DNA of 64,000 bases, taken from positions 131,113 through 195,112 of the forward strand of contig JADZEX010000081.1 of assembly GCA_020850355.1 (NCBI GenBank). The letters are read 5' to 3'. Below are positions 25,658-32,663 of this stretch, in pieces. The DNA is from Fimbriimonadaceae bacterium (lineage in GTDB: Bacteria; Armatimonadota; UBA10988). The notes below the pieces were generated by a model, which made no database searches, had not been told where the DNA came from, and was given only the letters and a program-made list of their open reading frames with translations. A program made the position numbers and the translations under genes. The stretch's first letter is position 1. Every line of letters starts with the position of its first letter.

Positions 25658-26698
25658 CTAAACGCTCTCGAACAGCCCTGGCTGCCCGCCAGTCACCGGC
25701 GGGATCCGCCCGAGATGCCGATAGGCCGCCGCCGAGGCCAGCCGGCCGCGCGGCGTGCGCTGGACGAACCCGACCAGCATCAGGAACGGCTCGACGACAT
25801 CTTCGAGTGTGTCGCGCTCTTCGTTGAGCGCGGCCGCCAGGGTCTCCACCCCGACCGGCCCGCCCTCGAACTTGTCGATCACCGTTTCGAGGTACCGCCG
25901 GTCCAACGGATCCAGCCCCAGCGCGTCGATCCCCATGCCGGCCAGGGTCTCGTCGGCGGTGGCCTGGTCGACCCGGCCCTGGGCGCGGACTTGGGCGTAG
26001 TCGCGGACGCGCCGCAGCAGGCGGTTGGCGATCCGCGGCGTGCCCCGACTACGGCGCGCGATCTCACGGGCGCCGCCCCTTTCCACTGGGACGCCCAGCA
26101 CCCCGGCGGTGTTCTCGACAATCTGCTGCAGTTCAGCCTGGCCGTACAGATCGATGTGCTGCATCACCCCGAACCGGTCACGCAGCGGCGAGGTCAGCAG
26201 TCCGACGCGGGTCGTCGCGCCGATCAGCGTGAACGGCTGCACCGGCAACCGGAGTGACCGCGCCCCAGGCCCCTTGCCGATCATCACATCGATCTGAAAG
26301 TCCTCGAGGGCCGGATAGAGCACTTCCTCGACGACTCGCGACAGGCGGTGGATCTCGTCGATGAACAGCACGGTGCGCGGCTCGAGGTTGCTGAGGATGG
26401 CCGCCAGATCGCCCGGTCGTTCGATCGCCGGGCCGCTGGTGGCGCGCAGGAAGCAGCCCATCTCGGCGGCGATGATGTGCGCCAGGGTGGTCTTGCCGAG
26501 GCCGGGCGGGCCGTGCAGCAGCACGTGGTCGAGCATCTCGCCGCGGTAGTCGGCCGCTTCCAGGGCGATCTGGAGCTGTTCCTTGACCTGCGGCTGGCCG
26601 ACGAAGTCGCGCAGCCGGGCCGGCCGCACGGACCGTTCGGCGCCGCTCTCGTCGTCACGCTGGCCGGGATCCAGTTCGTCGCTGCCGCGCATCGTCAC
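25658..26698 (-). CDS. ruvB: Holliday junction branch migration ATPase RuvB
   Basis: Motifs [30 protein letters not shown] and the RuvB C-terminal winged helix. Confidence 0.95.
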
Positions 26699-26699
26699 C

Positions 26700-27296
26700 T
26701 CAGCCTTCGTGCAGGCGTCGCAGCGCTTCTTTCAGCAAGGCCTCCAGCGCCGCGCCGTCGCCGAGGTGCAATAGCGCCGCGCGCGCCGCGCGCCGGGCCT
26801 CGACGGTGCTGAAGCCCAACCCGGTCAGCGCCTCGAGCAGTTCGGCCGGCGCCGCGCCGCCCGCCGGATCGCCGGCCGCGACGCTCCAGGCCTGCTTCCC
26901 GACGCGCTCGGAGAGTTCCACAATCAGCCGTTGCGCGAGCTTCTTGCCGACCCCCGGCAGGCCGACCAGCCGGGCCTCGTCGCCGCGGGCCAGCGCCTCG
27001 ACGAGTTGGGCCGGCGGGATCGCGCTGACGGCGCCCTGGGCGACCTTCGGGCCGACCCCGCTGACGGTCAGCAACTCCTCGAAGAGCGCCTTCTCGTCGT
27101 CGCTGCCGAACCCGTAGAGCAGCATCGCGTCTTCGCGCACGGCGAGGTAGACCGGCAGGCGCAGCGGGCTGCCGACGGCCGGCAGCCGCGCCACGGTGGC
27201 GCCGGCCAGCAGCACCAGGTAGCCGACGCCGCCGCATTCGATCACCGCGCGGTCTTCGCGCAACAGCGTCAGCGTGCCGTTGAGGTGGGCAATCAT
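26700..27296 (-). CDS. ruvA: Holliday junction DNA helicase RuvA
   Basis: MIAHLNGTL...GVGYLV...HhH motifs [16 protein letters not shown]. Lies immediately upstream of ruvB. Confidence 0.9.
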
Positions 27297-27874
27297 GGGG
27301 TCTCCAGCCGGGCCCGGTGCGCCGCCTGGGCGCGGTCGTCGGCCGCCAGGGCCGCCGCCAGACGGTCGCTGCCGGCACTCGGTTGGGCCGGCCCGGCGGT
27401 GCGGCTGAGCCCGCTGGGGAGGTGGCAGACGCACAGCGCCAGGGCGTCGGCGGCGTGGTCGGGGCGGGGCGGGGCGGGTAGCGCCAGCAGCCGCTGCACC
27501 ATGAACTGGACCTGCGCCTTGTCGGCCTGGCCGTGCCCGACCAGGGTCAGCTTGACATGGGTCGGCGTGTACTCGGCGATGTCCAGCCCGGCCTGCGCCG
27601 CCGCCAGTCGGACGACGCCGATGGCCTGCCCGACAGCCAGCCCGGTGGACCCGTCACGGAGCTGGTAGAGCCGCTCCATGACCACCGTCGCGGGACGCTG
27701 CTCGCGCAGCAGGGCGGACATCTGATCGTGAATGTGGAGCAGGCGATCCCCCAACGGCAGCCGCGCGGCGGTCCGCCAGCAGCCGTAGCGCAACGCCTGG
27801 TAGCGCCCGTGCGCCGCCGCCACCACCGCATAGCCGGTGGCCGCCAGACCGGGATCGATCCCCACCAGGACCAC
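27293..27874 (-). CDS. ruvC: crossover junction endodeoxyribonuclease RuvC
   Basis: GTG start after GGGAGGCGGG. VLVGIDPGLAATGYAVV catalytic-Asp N-terminus. ATGA overlap with ruvA. Confidence 0.85.
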   Translation of the reverse strand: MVLVGIDPGLAATGYAVVAAAHGRYQALRYGCWRTAARLPLGDRLLHIHDQMSALLREQRPATVVMERLYQLRDGSTGLAVGQAIGVVRLAAAQAGLDIAEYTPTHVKLTLVGHGQADKAQVQFMVQRLLALPAPPRPDHAADALALCVCHLPSGLSRTAGPAQPSAGSDRLAAALAADDRAQAAHRARLETP

Positions 27875-27934
27875 GCCCGCCTCCCGCCGCAGTGTAGCAC
27901 GCCGCCCCGCCTGAAACAAGCGTTTGCGCAGGCG

Positions 27935-28498
27935 TCAGGCGGTTCGCCGCTGCGCGGCCCACTCCTCGCGCCGGATCCGCATCAGGTGCAGGTCGTGGCA
28001 CTGCCCGCGGTGGTAGAACGCCTCGCGGCGCGTGCTGGCGACCCGCAGACCGGCCTTCTCGTAGACCCGCTGCGCGGCGAGGTTGGTGGTGAAGACCTCG
28101 AGTTCGACGCGCTGCAGGGCGAGGTCGTCGAACAGGAACTCCAGCAGCAGGCGCACCGCGGCGGTGCCGTGGCCCTGATTCCAGCAATCCCGCTCACCAA
28201 TCGCCAGGCCGATCGTCGCCCGTTGATTGGGGAGATCGAGGTAGTCGGTGCCGGCGGTGCCGATGGGCAGCCATTGCGCGTCGTGGCAGACCTCGACGAT
28301 GAACAGGCGGTTGCTGGGGTCGGCGATCTGGTCGGCGTACCAGTGCTGCTCCTCGGCCGCCGTGAGCGGCGCGAACAGCCCAAGGTTGCCGCGCACCACG
28401 GGGTCGCCGTACCAGCGCAAGAGGTGCGCCAGGTCGCTGGCCAGGGCGCGCCGCAGCCGCCGCGGGGCGGCCGTCAGAACGGTCCGTTCAGCGGCCAT
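27935..28498 (-). CDS. GNAT family N-acetyltransferase
   Basis: 187 aa. Acetyl-CoA binding region QGHGTAAVRLLLEFLFDDLALQRVELEV. Confidence 0.75.
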   Translation of the reverse strand: MAAERTVLTAAPRRLRRALASDLAHLLRWYGDPVVRGNLGLFAPLTAAEEQHWYADQIADPSNRLFIVEVCHDAQWLPIGTAGTDYLDLPNQRATIGLAIGERDCWNQGHGTAAVRLLLEFLFDDLALQRVELEVFTTNLAAQRVYEKAGLRVASTRREAFYHRGQCHDLHLMRIRREEWAAQRRTA

Positions 28499-30252
28499 CA
28501 GCGGCCCGCGAGGTAAGCGTCGGCATGTTGCTTCATCTGGTCCCACGGCCAACCGGCCGGGTCGGGTTTGCCCCGCAGGCCGCCGGCGAAGTCCTTGTGG
28601 TAGACCACGCCCTCCACGAAGGACTCTCGGGGGATGTGACGCAGCGGAATAGCCTGGCGACGACATATATCCGCCACCAGGCGCCCGACCGACCGAATCT
28701 GGCCGGCCGTGAAGTCCCAGCCGTTGGCGACGATCTCGATGCCGATGGTCTCGGAGTTGAAGTCGTAAATCGGCCCGGTGTTGCGCCACTGCCCGGTGCC
28801 GGCGTGGCGCGTGATGGTCTGCTCTTCGGCCAACTGCAAGACGGTGCCGGCGCGCAGCACCAGATAGTGCACGCCGATGGTGCTCGGCTCGGGCAGCACC
28901 TGCGCGCCGGGGGTGATGTCCTGGTAGAGCTTCGAGAGCAGCCCGTCGCTGGAGCTGGTCAGCGCGTTCAGCGAGCCGCCATCGCTCTGGGTGGCGGTGT
29001 GGTGCAGGACCACCCAGCGGGGCCAGCTCGGACGCTGCCAGCGCATCGTGCCGGGCCGCGTGTCGTGGATGGCACGGCCGTCCGGCCGCGGGCGCTGGCG
29101 CCCTGCGAAGGCCATCGCGGCGCTATCGAAAACCACGCCGCTGGGGCCGACATTGCGTCCGCGGCGGGTCACGCGGCAGGTCTTGCCGGCGACGTTGACG
29201 GCGGTGGTTTGGACCAGGTCGCGGTCGTCGATGCCAAAGCGGTCGGTGCGGCCGAGGCTGGTTGCCCAACTGCGGCCGTCGGGCGCGGCGACCGGGGCCG
29301 GCGCCAGCCAGTCGGGCGATGGCCGCAGCGGCACCCGGCTGTCGATGGTCGCCAGCAGCGTGTGCTCGCCGCTGGCCAGGGCGGTCTGCCAGAGCCCCGT
29401 CTGGCCCTCGCGCCGGGCCAGGTAGAGCGCCTGACCGTCGCGCCAGCCGACCAGCGACTCGGTCGGTCCGGCCAACGGCCAGCCCTTGACGACCTCGCCG
29501 TTGGGCCGCCGCTGCTGCGCCCAGGGGCCGTCGGGCTCGGCGGTCTGAATCCAGATGGTTTCGCCCGCCCAACTCGCGCCGAGCACCTGGCAGTCGGGCT
29601 GGGCCGGATAGGCGAAGGTCGGCGCGGCGGTGGGCTGGGCCGCTTGGAAGACCAGCAGTTGCTGCCCGAGGCGCGCGGCGACCAGGCCGTTCGGACCGGG
29701 CCAGACGCCGTCCAGGCCGGCCATCGTCACGACGCGCTGGGGGGCGCCGGCGGGCGGAAGCTGCCACAGACCGCTCGTCTCGCCCTGCGGCACGGTCACC
29801 CAGAGCAGGCCCGCGGCGTCCCAGGCGAAGCTCTGGCGCGTGCGCGGCGTGATGGCGCCGACCCGCAAGGGAGCGCTGAGCAGCCTGGCGTCGGCAGCCT
29901 GCCAGACGCCCACCGCGCCCTGGCCGTCGCTGCCGCCCTGCAAGTAGGCGATCCGCGTGCCATCAGGTGAGGCCTGCCCGCAGCCGAAAGCGCCAGGGCC
30001 GCCCCACAGCCGGGCCGCCGCGGTGCGCACGTCGATGGTGTAGAGCGGCCCGAGCGGGGCGGCGTTGAGGCGGTCATGGTGCGACTCGAGGTGCAGCCGC
30101 GGGCCGTCGCCCGACCAGACCGGCTGGCCCCCCGGCCCGAGCCAGCGCAGACTGGGCGCACCAGGGGTGTAGAGGTGGACGCCGGCGGTGCGCACGAGAG
30201 GTTCGCCCGCCAGCAGGCCGGCGCAGGTCAGCAGAACGACGAGGTTGCCCAA
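28498..30252 (-). CDS. secreted beta-propeller (TolB/WD40-like) protein fused to C-terminal N-acetylmuramoyl-L-alanine amidase (Amidase_2/PGRP) domain
   Basis: TTG start after GGAGGG. Signal peptide LGNLVVLLTCAGLLAG. Repeated W/G-rich blades. C-terminal LHHTAT...GVHYLV...IGIEIVANG amidase_2 motifs. Overlaps GNAT start by 1 nt (TGATG). Confidence 0.65.
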   Translation of the reverse strand: MGNLVVLLTCAGLLAGEPLVRTAGVHLYTPGAPSLRWLGPGGQPVWSGDGPRLHLESHHDRLNAAPLGPLYTIDVRTAAARLWGGPGAFGCGQASPDGTRIAYLQGGSDGQGAVGVWQAADARLLSAPLRVGAITPRTRQSFAWDAAGLLWVTVPQGETSGLWQLPPAGAPQRVVTMAGLDGVWPGPNGLVAARLGQQLLVFQAAQPTAAPTFAYPAQPDCQVLGASWAGETIWIQTAEPDGPWAQQRRPNGEVVKGWPLAGPTESLVGWRDGQALYLARREGQTGLWQTALASGEHTLLATIDSRVPLRPSPDWLAPAPVAAPDGRSWATSLGRTDRFGIDDRDLVQTTAVNVAGKTCRVTRRGRNVGPSGVVFDSAAMAFAGRQRPRPDGRAIHDTRPGTMRWQRPSWPRWVVLHHTATQSDGGSLNALTSSSDGLLSKLYQDITPGAQVLPEPSTIGVHYLVLRAGTVLQLAEEQTITRHAGTGQWRNTGPIYDFNSETIGIEIVANGWDFTAGQIRSVGRLVADICRRQAIPLRHIPRESFVEGVVYHKDFAGGLRGKPDPAGWPWDQMKQHADAYLAGR

Positions 30253-30477
30253 GGAGCCCTCCGCAGGCAGGATGCAGCAGCGGTCGGGTGGCGTCAAGGC
30301 GGGCGACGGGGGGCGCAGGCCCAACAGCAGACCCGACGAGGGCCCCAGTGAGCGCCATCCGCGCCACGGACGCAGCAGCTCCGAGCGTCCAGCTTGACGG
30401 CGCTCGCCACGACCTGCTACTCTCCAACTGCGTCGCCCAACCAGCCGAAGGGTTTGCCGAGCGGAGCCAGGCCAACA

Positions 30478-30909
30478 ATGCCAGCCAAGGAGTACCATCA
30501 GCTTCCAAGATGCCCATGCAAGAAGCTGCGGTACCGCTATGATCCTTGTGAGGGTCGAACGAAGCACAAGTGGCGTGAAGGTGCGGCGGGCTTTGCGCCT
30601 GTGGGCAAGTTCATTGTTGGCAAGTGTCCTTGCGGCATGTCCAATGCCGAGGCCGAGGCCATCCTCAACAGCGGGATGGGCGAGTATGACCCGGGTGACG
30701 AGCACCCAAAGAAGATCTACGCGGTGCATAATGGCGTTGTCTACATAGCTATGCGGAACAACGACGGCAACGCGTATCATGGCTATCCAGCAACTCGGCG
30801 TGATGTTGTCGGCAGCGCATACCGGTACGTGCTAGAAATGGCTGACCGCGACCAGTGTATGCAAGCCGCCAAAGCGTGGCTGAAGGAGCACCGCGGTGGC
30901 AACGGATAG
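30478..30909 (+). CDS. small Cys-rich hypothetical protein (2x CPC motifs; possible zinc ribbon / HNH-like core)
   Basis: 143 aa. Motifs PRCPCKK...C...GKCPCG then YAVHNGVVYIAMRNNDGNAYHGY. Low-GC codon usage. 14-nt overlap with the downstream gene. Confidence 0.55.
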   Translation: MPAKEYHQLPRCPCKKLRYRYDPCEGRTKHKWREGAAGFAPVGKFIVGKCPCGMSNAEAEAILNSGMGEYDPGDEHPKKIYAVHNGVVYIAMRNNDGNAYHGYPATRRDVVGSAYRYVLEMADRDQCMQAAKAWLKEHRGGNG

Positions 30910-32329
30910 TGGATTCTCCATAGACATTGACTTCAGTCAGGATGTTGATGCCGGATCCCGCCAGCGACCTTTGGACGGGGGCCTCGTCCTCAAGATTGGA
31001 CGGTGGTTGCCGTGGAATGAGCAGGATGAGCGGGGCCAGCCCGTTCCAGACCAAGACTGCTGGCGAAGTCTGCTTGAGTGGATGAGTGACGCCTGGTTGT
31101 ACCTTCGGCACGACACCACAGAACCGTTGCGGCTACTAGGCAAGCCACTGTCCAATAACCCCGCGCTCTGGTGGGATGAGGCTCTCGACCGCTGGGATAG
31201 TCCCGACTACGACTCGGACCGGGCCTCGAAAGAGGAAAGCGATCTAGTTGATTGGCTGAACAATCACGACATCTCGTGCGGTTTGCCCGAGAAGTGCGGT
31301 GCACGTGTAGTGTTTCTTCGGGTGGGTGCCCAGTGCATGGTAAGTTGCCCGGATGGGTCTGTGACGTTGGGGCTGGAAGAGGCCTTGACGGAGCTAACTC
31401 GGTGTGGGGATACCTTGGCCGAGAGGTTGCGGGGCTCGACGCTGCCGGCCGACCAGGCCCTTGTGGCACGATGGAAGAGCCGGGACAACACGTCAGTGGA
31501 GGGCCGCTTGGCGGCCTTCGGCGCCAACGTTCAGGTTCTTCGTGCGCTGAGGTCCAGCGAAGCCTTGGCGACATGGTCCCTCGAGCTGGATGCCGTCGAT
31601 CCCAATGCCAATCCTCTGCTGTTGGCGGCTCGGGCATGTCAAGATGAGCTGCCTACCGACATCCTGAGTAAGCTGCTGGCCCAGATCAGAGAGATCCGTG
31701 AGAGGCCCACCCCTGTGGTGGATGAGTTGGCTCGCAAGGTAACGGCAAGTCTGCGTCGATCCAGCCGTACCAAACCGTTCAGGCAGGGGTACATGGCGGC
31801 CGCGACCTTGCGTTCTCGGCTCGGTGCTGCAACTGGTGCAATCGATCCGGTCGAGCTGTTGGACCGTTGGAACGTAGCGGTGCAGCACCTCCAGCTTGGA
31901 ACGGAGGTCATTGATGCGGTGGCCTGCTGGGGAGGTGGCTACGGGCCGGTGATCCTAGTGAATGACGACGGTCGGCACGCTCAGGGTACTAACGGTCTGC
32001 GTGCAACACTCGCGCACGAGATCGGCCACCTCATGGTGGACCGCTGGGATTGCGTGCCTGTTTGCGATGTGAGCGGGCTCCGCTCTCGTCTGCCCCACGA
32101 GCAACGCGCCAATGCCTTCGCTGCTGAGCTGCTCGTGCCGCAGGACGAGATCAAGCGACGACTCATACCGGGGTGCCAGGTGACTGCGGTCGTCACCGAC
32201 CTGGCTGCTGAGTACGGCGCGAGTCGGCAGCTCGTGGCTTGGCACGCCACCAACTCGGCGACCGAACTGGATTCCCGCGCCAAGGGCGCGCTCCGCGATC
32301 TCTGTGACGAGGACGATACCTGGAGTTGA
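30896..32329 (+). CDS. ImmA/IrrE-family (COG2856, DUF955) zinc metallopeptidase-domain protein with about 270-aa N-terminal domain of unknown function
   Basis: GTG start 7 nt after AAGGAG. C-terminal motifs ATLAHEIGHLMVD (HExxH) and ANAFAAELLVP, diagnostic of ImmA/IrrE peptidases. Confidence 0.75.
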   Translation: MATDSGFSIDIDFSQDVDAGSRQRPLDGGLVLKIGRWLPWNEQDERGQPVPDQDCWRSLLEWMSDAWLYLRHDTTEPLRLLGKPLSNNPALWWDEALDRWDSPDYDSDRASKEESDLVDWLNNHDISCGLPEKCGARVVFLRVGAQCMVSCPDGSVTLGLEEALTELTRCGDTLAERLRGSTLPADQALVARWKSRDNTSVEGRLAAFGANVQVLRALRSSEALATWSLELDAVDPNANPLLLAARACQDELPTDILSKLLAQIREIRERPTPVVDELARKVTASLRRSSRTKPFRQGYMAAATLRSRLGAATGAIDPVELLDRWNVAVQHLQLGTEVIDAVACWGGGYGPVILVNDDGRHAQGTNGLRATLAHEIGHLMVDRWDCVPVCDVSGLRSRLPHEQRANAFAAELLVPQDEIKRRLIPGCQVTAVVTDLAAEYGASRQLVAWHATNSATELDSRAKGALRDLCDEDDTWS

Positions 32330-32339
32330 TGGCGACTGG

Positions 32340-32624
32340 CGCGGCCAGCCCGGGGATCCGGTCAGTTGGATCAGCGTGCAGTCGGCCCCGCCGCTGCTGC
32401 CACCCTACAGCTCGGGCAGCTTCCAGAGCCGGCTGCTGCCATTGCTGCAGGCCGGCCACGGCGGCACCCGCCTGGCCGCCGCCGAACTGCGCACCTTGGC
32501 CACCTGGCTGGACCTGCTGGTGCCCTACTGCGGCGACTACACCGAGGCGCACGCCTGGAGCCCGGAAGAGGTCGCCAAGTACCAGCACTTCAGCGACAAG
32601 CGCCGCCGCCTGGCAACGCCGTAG
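32340..32624 (+). pseudogene. 5'-truncated gene remnant (C-terminal fragment of unknown protein)
   Basis: High-GC ORF resuming exactly where the low-GC islet ends. Coding-like periodicity (…LVPYCGDYTEAHAWSPEEVAKYQHFSDKRRRL) but no start context and no N-terminal part anywhere upstream. Confidence 0.35.
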
Positions 32625-32663
32625 CCGCGCCGGTGAGTCAGGCTGGTTCGTCGGCGCCGCCCG

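Follow-up and report, generated by a model that had tools for sequence, protein, structure and literature searches.

A small gene at positions 30478-30909 (+) of the window, the 64,000-nt stretch of Fimbriimonadaceae DNA analysed here, and the peptidase gene that follows it at 30896-32329 (+) form a pair that recurs in other genomes. By analogy with characterised systems, we consider it probable that this pair is a horizontally acquired, self-contained toxin–antitoxin (TA) or defence module resembling RosmerTA, composed of an RNase toxin and an antitoxin with a protease domain. The small gene is predicted to encode a BECR-Tox2-like RNase toxin of an unnamed family, an assignment that draws on its homologues, their residue conservation, an AlphaFold2 model and matches to NsnC effectors. 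What is least certain is the RNase/BECR assignment and which way control runs; that a conserved two-gene conflict module exists is less in doubt.

The small open reading frame (ORF) runs from an ATG to a TAG stop codon and encodes 143 amino acids. A GGAG Shine-Dalgarno-like motif, read from the sequence, lies 11 nt 5' of the ATG (30463-30466, +). An exhaustive HMMER scan of 1.84 billion representative proteins yielded 192 homologues, of which 66 have E<1e-10, with matches spanning residues ~17-138. Given these relatives, the ORF is a real gene rather than one that the high GC content of the genome produced by chance. The GenBank model of the gene comprises only 102 amino acids and starts at V42 (GTG, 30601), which cuts away the near-invariant K29-H30 and ~25 conserved residues. 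This start is too short because the family matches begin at ~residue 17; judged by the homologues, the longer ORF from the ATG at 30478, which an earlier reading of the sequence (hereafter the original prediction) had used, is the better gene model and corrects the truncated GenBank one. A mechanical ORF on the opposite strand (28498-30780, 760 amino acids) overlaps the small gene and is recognisable only in its C-terminal part (Amidase_2, E 1.2e-21). The GC profile suggests that the true start of this minus-strand gene lies before ~30400, and the overlap is probably a long-ORF artefact of high GC.

The homologues of the small protein are nearly all free-standing and 125-190 amino acids long. 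A profile search gathered 296 clusters, all annotated "hypothetical" and without Pfam domains, and the family comprises ~200-300 members; a word-indexed single-sequence protein search retrieves only the 143-aa protein itself. Pfam, NCBIfam and PHROGs gave no match to the 143-aa protein, to 89 family members or to two family consensuses, in line with the failure of the original prediction to recognise a named family. Likewise, tblastn of 50,697 phage genomes found no match to the family. A scan of viral contigs returned one locus (L051, IMGVR_UViG_2734482251_000002), whose contig is also that of L019 (Humitalea rosea NZ_QKYU01000034.1); this sole "viral" occurrence is a bacterial genome scaffold of 34.8 kb that IMG/VR classes as viral.

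Residue conservation, counted in an alignment of 89 sequences, singles out a few positions. C50 (codon 30625-30627, +), in the motif G-K-C-P, is present in 89/89 sequences and is both the sole fully invariant residue and the sole conserved Cys of five. K29 and H30 (codons 30562-30567, +), in the N-terminal extension, are Lys in 84/89 and His in 87/89, and this conserved KH is a predicted part of the active site. H101 (codon 30778-30780, +), part of the motif Y-H-G-Y/F-P where the last core strand begins, is His in 88/89 and is the predicted second catalytic His. Together with these three, Y21, L63, G86, Y89, P104, A122 and W134 are conserved in at least 90% of the sequences. Read from the alignment, the family signature is KH ... 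GKCP ... Y.A ... (Y/W)HG(Y/F)P, not a zinc ribbon plus an HNH core.

The latter combination was the structural core of the original prediction, and the strings on which it was built are all there: P10-R-C12-P-C14-K-K followed by C24, G48-K-C50-P-C52-G, and the quoted stretch YAVHNGVVYIAMRNNDGNAYHGY, which is present in the 143-aa product and which residues Y81-AVHNGVVYIAMRNNDGNAYHG-Y103 match exactly. The ORF and the adjacent ImmA-like protease are likewise confirmed in the sequence. On that proposal the protein would be an HNH/beta-beta-alpha-Me nuclease with a 4-Cys zinc ribbon (C12, C14, C50, C52) and a metal-dependent site made of H84, N85, N94/N95 and H101. Two CPC motifs in 143 residues are indeed unusual, H101 is nearly invariant, and H84 is His in 41/89 homologues (46%). 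The CPC motifs, though genuine, are particular to this protein and not conserved in the family. The C12/C14 segment is gapped in 55 and 41 of the 89 homologues, with Cys conserved there in none; C24 is Gly in 57/89, and C52 is replaced by Ser, Asn, Ala or Lys, leaving C50 as the only invariant Cys. H84 is Tyr or Phe in 33/89, N85 is mostly Glu or Asp, N94 mostly Thr or Ser, and N95 is variable. In the AlphaFold2 model, the first 20 residues are coil, and H101 lies on a strand rather than on a helix following a hairpin, the next helix starting only at residue 113. Neither Pfam, NCBIfam, PHROGs nor PADLOC gave an HNH or zinc-ribbon match, and no HNH protein is among the Foldseek matches. Conservation and secondary structure thus contradict an HNH nuclease with a zinc ribbon; we give it next to no probability and regard it as essentially refuted. 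A residual possibility is a lineage-specific Zn clip, C12/C14-C50/C52, that would staple the longer N-terminus of this orthologue to its hairpin.

The AlphaFold2 model of the small protein, computed from a 108-sequence alignment, has a pLDDT (predicted local distance difference test) score of 87.8 and a predicted template modelling score (pTM) of 0.82. Residues 1-37, which carry K29-H30, have no regular secondary structure, and the coil of residues 1-20 is of low confidence (pLDDT 59-74). A beta-hairpin follows (38-42 and 45-50), ending at C50. Next come a helix (56-65) and four strands (67-69, 79-84, 87-93 and 100-104), with H101 as the second residue of the last strand, and the chain ends in two C-terminal helices (113-137). 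The modelled order of one helix and four strands fits the BECR core as defined in PMC12065111.

Sequence libraries point in the same direction. The only family-level matches were to PADLOC models of NsnC, always in their C-terminal effector region (the last 60-90 profile positions); no RmrT model of PADLOC matched the small protein. The 143-aa query matches NsnC at E 1.8e-6, 21 of the 89 family members match NsnC models (best E 3.5e-8), and the family consensus matches four of them (E 3.6e-7, 3.1e-6, 2e-4 and 0.016). NsnC is the effector of Menshen defence systems and joins an N-terminal PIN-like domain to a C-terminal effector domain; BECR RNases account for nine of the 15 NsnC effector families, PB-BECR1 being the commonest (PMC12065111). 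Within these RNases, the BECR-Tox2-like group combines the BECR core with a little-structured N-terminal extension bearing a KH and with another conserved His close to the start of beta4; its members are mostly C-terminal domains of NsnC, and one of them is toxic in E. coli and neutralised by its neighbour (10.64898/2026.08.28.747851). The small protein carries K29-H30 in coil upstream of helix 56-65 and is related to NsnC C-terminal domains at the sequence and profile level. Taking sequence and model together, we assign it to the BECR-Tox2-like group with moderate confidence, and we infer from this a BECR fold, RNase activity and toxicity.

The partner gene (30896-32329, +) begins with a GTG, overlaps the small gene by 14 nt and encodes 477 amino acids. 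Its product is identical to a protein of a Fimbriimonadaceae metagenome-assembled genome, the one in which GenBank annotates the shortened small gene. An AAGGAG Shine-Dalgarno motif, again read from the sequence, lies 7 nt 5' of this GTG inside the end of the small gene (30883-30888, +), a placement that suggests translational coupling of the peptidase gene to the small gene. Overlaps or short gaps of like kind separate the two genes at homologous loci. The C-terminal part of the protein is an ImmA/IrrE (M78, COG2856) zinc-peptidase domain (31847-32329, +), recognised by Pfam (Peptidase_M78, E 6.7e-8), by PADLOC (CapP at 2e-13 and twelve RmrA models, best 3.8e-12, over the peptidase part only), by Foldseek (CapP 7t5t at E 1e-4, also IrrE/PprI and PrpR) and by a profile search of the PDB (IrrE at 2.7e-8). 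The motif HEIGH (residues 374-378; 32015-32029, +) and E402 (32099-32101, +) mark its active site. H374, E375, H378 and E402 are invariant in 20 partner homologues, and by its sequence this peptidase active site is intact.

The N-terminal ~310 residues of the partner (30896-31825, +) form a conserved domain that we propose to be toxin-binding and/or a sensor. Partner homologues are 453-517 amino acids long and alignable over their full length, and the N-terminal domain is conserved throughout in the 20 homologues, with L60, W67, H124 and R142 invariant. The model of the partner (pLDDT 86) is confident over most of this domain. No relatives of the N-terminal ~310 residues were found in Pfam, with either the protein or the family consensus, nor in the PDB by profile or Foldseek.

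To place the pair in its genomic context, 45 loci were scored with hidden Markov models of both proteins: nine from exact-protein look-ups, two on plasmids and 34 from species-representative genomes, the last mostly of Alphaproteobacteria. Three loci end at a contig edge and were left out of the synteny count. A peptidase gene of ~450-520 codons lies directly downstream on the same strand in 41 of the 42 assessable loci, so the co-occurrence of homologues with COG2856 peptidase genes that the original prediction had proposed to look for is borne out. Its general idea of a compact nuclease or toxin tied to the adjacent ImmA-like protease gains from this synteny and from the similarity to effector domains, while its structural specifics fall. 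At the plasmid loci, on Agrobacterium pAt and in Thiodictyon, RefSeq calls the first gene "hypothetical protein" and the second "ImmA/IrrE family metallo-endopeptidase", the two overlapping by 4 nt. At the sole partnerless locus (L045; Mesorhizobium metallidurans STM 2683, NZ_CAUM01000080.1, 271-675), the toxin gene is truncated, lacks the KH region and has Met for C50, which is what one expects of a toxin remnant after antitoxin loss.

Toxin and partner have also diverged together. Their distances correlate across 33 non-redundant loci with a Mantel r of 0.916, which 0 of 2000 permutations reach, and with an r of 0.91 when the N-terminal part of the partner is taken alone. This correlation shows that the two genes are inherited together; taken alone, it is no proof that their products interact physically. 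A distant partner clade (21-23% identity; Rhodoplanes and metagenomes) is preceded by mini-versions of the small protein, 95-136 amino acids long, in which the KH, (L)CP and WHGYP motifs are retained (L046, 2598-3008; L049, 1252-1539; L048, ~2000-2439). The equivalent of C50 is present in two of the three; the L048 copy has Arg, was not called as a gene and may be decayed. As this distant clade is also paired, the coupling is old.

Conservation is confined to the pair itself, and the surrounding genes vary from locus to locus. Among them are integrase, transposases, relaxase, ArdC, AbiJ, VapBC and MazEF, a varying set of mobile-element and TA genes, as is usual for mobile TA or defence cassettes. 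At L010 (3633-4306), L011 (8783-9330) and L006 (9435-10093), modules have classical TA pairs (VapC/Phd, MazEF, PIN/PSK_trans_fac) as neighbours and adjoin mobile-element genes as well, namely integrase, insertion sequence (IS) transposase, relaxase, ArdC and AbiJ.

Metal-independent RNases such as RNase A and EndoU classically rely on two His and a Lys for catalysis. In the mechanism that we propose, the 143-aa protein would be the toxin, presumably an RNase, and K29-H30 from the unstructured extension would be expected to sit beside H101 at the start of the last strand, recalling the His/Lys/His chemistry of those enzymes. The 477-aa protein, translationally coupled downstream, would be the antitoxin or controller. 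Its novel ~310-aa N-terminal domain would bind and mask the toxin and keep it inactive, and the intact zinc-peptidase domain would act as the switch, the toxin being released or activated on a stress or phage cue. This could come about through self-cleavage or through cleavage of a partner protein, and candidate substrates are the peptidase protein itself, the helical tail of the toxin and a third party.

Which protein neutralises which, and what the protease cuts, we likewise infer. The roles are assigned because of the analogy with RosmerTA and RipAB. In RosmerTA, experiments have confirmed ImmA-domain proteins as the antitoxins of diverse toxins, and 58% of pairs have the toxin gene in first place (PMC10440598); in RipAB of S. 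pneumoniae an XRE-ImmA protein neutralises the toxin encoded upstream (PMC12795458). With the polarity reversed, the peptidase protein would be the toxin and the small protein its antitoxin. Makarova et al. reportedly predicted, in 2009, that COG2856 proteins are the toxins of Xre-COG2856 pairs. We hold this polarity to be very improbable here, given the experimental role of ImmA-domain proteins in Rosmer systems, the resemblance of the small protein to effector domains of a defence system, and the truncation of the small gene at the one locus where the partner is missing.

The pair could also be a regulatory switch, in which the small protein would be a substrate or regulator of the protease, like ImmR, DdrO or CapH, and would control other genes or a mobile element. 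In favour of this, the protease of every ImmA/IrrE/CapP system whose mechanism is understood cuts the protein encoded by the small gene next to it, and the two terminal helices of the small protein (113-137) could be a cleavable tail. However, no helix-turn-helix (HTH) or other DNA-binding signature was found in the small protein, the pair stands alone between housekeeping genes in the window with nothing obvious to regulate, and across loci the neighbours differ around a protein that resembles effector domains. We therefore regard a purely regulatory role as improbable.

Several observations weigh against a RosmerTA-like module with an RNase toxin. Foldseek searches of the PDB and of BFVD with the small-protein model gave nothing at E<=0.001. 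The only recognisable small-toxin folds among the weak matches were RelE (3g5o_B, 2khe, 9g12_B) and HigB (6kml_C), a weak structural echo in favour of the RNase reading, but the best RelE match has E 0.35, probability 0.23, a template modelling (TM) score of 0.22-0.35 and a root-mean-square deviation of 5 A. Sequence and profile searches of the PDB with the small protein were empty at E<=10. The NsnC matches are modest (E 1e-6 to 1e-8), and the matched models may carry any of 15 C-terminal families. The invariant C50 lies outside the published BECR-Tox2 signature, as do the extra hairpin and the C-terminal helices. On the side of the partner, the match to the spr1629 antitoxin model reaches 27 bits against a cut-off of 335, and no HTH was detected by Pfam with the protein or the family consensus, the PDB and Foldseek matches covering the peptidase part only and helices 184-265 not having been examined further. 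Finally, at two of the 41 loci, L027 (4375-5824) and L029 (4234-5499), frameshifts break the partner gene into two or three frames while the toxin is apparently intact. Both contigs bear the MFD label of one series of metagenome-assembled genomes; we suspect assembly errors, and the frameshifts may also be real decay.

The invariance of C50 lends itself to a different catalytic reading, in which the small protein would still be a toxin with an ImmA-domain antitoxin but not an RNase: C50 would join H30 and H101 in a Cys/His centre for catalysis or metal binding, for example with a deamidase-, peptidase- or transferase-like activity or as a His2Cys metal site. That this Cys is the only fully invariant residue, that it is no part of the published BECR-Tox2 signature, and the lack of a significant structural match to a solved RNase speak for it. 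Yet the sole detectable homology of the family is to the C-termini of NsnC effectors, which are predominantly BECR RNases, both the KH...H pattern and the topology fit the BECR-Tox2-like group, and the distant L048 copy, which may be decayed, has Arg in place of the Cys. A non-RNase toxin is, on balance, quite unlikely.

A further alternative would keep the toxin and change the logic of the system. The pair may be a distinct, undescribed protease-gated defence system, in which a novel ~310-aa sensor domain fused to an ImmA peptidase directly cleaves or unmasks a mini-toxin whose K-H/C/H site is unlike that of every characterised BECR family, for example through use of the Cys in catalysis or metal binding. 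A toxin complex, rather than a repressor as in ImmA, IrrE and CapP systems, would then be proteolysed. We treat this version as tentative and rather unlikely, though deserving of some weight, and favour a RosmerTA-like RNase toxin with its protease-domain antitoxin.

Composition sets the pair apart from its surroundings in the window. Both genes sit in a 1.9-kb stretch with a GC of 0.57-0.64, compared with 0.70-0.76 in the flanks and the surrounding genome, and form a GC-poor two-gene island (30400-32330) between housekeeping genes of the opposite strand. Horizontal acquisition of the module is the best reading. The flanking genes on the other strand encode RuvB, RuvA and RuvC (by their translations), a GNAT acetyltransferase, an Amidase_2-domain protein, GlyRS and a sugar transferase. 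A tRNA search of the window found none, and a repeat search around the island gave short chance-level matches only and no att-like direct repeats. A scan for promoters and terminators found nothing and is uninformative for this organism. Upstream of the island lies the ruvB-ruvA-ruvC cluster (25658-27919, -), in which the mechanical RuvA and RuvC ORFs overlap by >100 nt, probably through over-extended starts. Downstream, a 335-nt spacer of host-like GC (~0.70; 32330-32663) separates the peptidase stop codon from the end of the GlyRS gene. An ORF on this side (32304-32624, 106 amino acids) has no Pfam match, and no terminator-like site was found in the spacer.

Each ingredient of the proposed module is of a known kind: RNase toxins of the BECR type, and ImmA-domain antitoxins whose toxins are swappable. 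The form that they take here appears to be undescribed: a free-standing toxin family with an invariant Cys and an obligate, HTH-less ImmA partner of ~475 amino acids with a new N-terminal domain. If our reading is correct, ~200-300 "hypothetical" proteins and their long ImmA-type partners, mainly from Alphaproteobacteria and their plasmids, would receive a name and a testable mechanism. The RosmerTA paradigm would extend to an antitoxin that lacks an HTH and has a new N-terminal domain, and BECR-Tox2-like RNases, so far from Menshen and polymorphic-toxin loci, would gain a free-standing TA context. Since ImmA antitoxins are already known to exchange their toxin modules, the finding is incremental rather than surprising. 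The small, strictly two-gene pair is a convenient model for what the protease domain of a Rosmer-type antitoxin cleaves.

Membership in Menshen (NsnABC) was considered and rejected: neither NsnA (ParB-DUF262) nor NsnB (ABC ATPase and DUF3696) is present beside the pair in the window or at any retrieved homologous locus, and there is no PIN domain. The small protein shares with the BECR-Tox2-like C-termini of NsnC the Lys-His in an unstructured N-terminal extension and, as modelled, a core of one helix and four strands with a second conserved His at the start of the last strand; it also has profile similarity to four NsnC models. It differs from them in standing alone, without an inPIN/PIN N-terminal domain, in having a long ImmA peptidase as partner instead of a small BECR-Imm2 immunity protein, and in its invariant Cys (G-K-C-P), the beta-hairpin before the core helix and the two C-terminal helices.

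RelE, YafQ and HigB are type II toxins to which the 143-aa protein is comparable as a predicted small, metal-independent RNase of the same proposed superfold. They have no sequence similarity to it and use other catalytic residues, and the partner here is not a small DNA-binding antitoxin. The ImmA/ImmR, IrrE/DdrO and CapP/CapH systems share with the pair the peptidase fold and active site and a functional partner encoded by the adjacent gene. In contrast to those systems, the neighbour here is not an HTH repressor, and no regulated operon, integrative and conjugative element or CBASS (cyclic oligonucleotide-based antiphage signalling system) adjoins the pair in the window.

RosmerTA, with RipAB (Spr1630/Spr1629), is the system that our reading follows. 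Its antitoxins usually carry a short Xre-type HTH at the N-terminus, a feature that is frequent and not universal in RmrA; in the ~475-aa partner described here, the ~310-aa N-terminal domain takes its place. PADLOC RmrA profiles match the peptidase part only, and none of the named RmrT models represents the toxin family. In common with RosmerTA, the pair has a gene for an ImmA/M78 protein with an intact HExxH adjoining a putative toxin gene in a toxin-first, overlapping two-gene operon, a toxin module that appears swappable, and locations on plasmids, on mobile islands and beside TA and defence genes.

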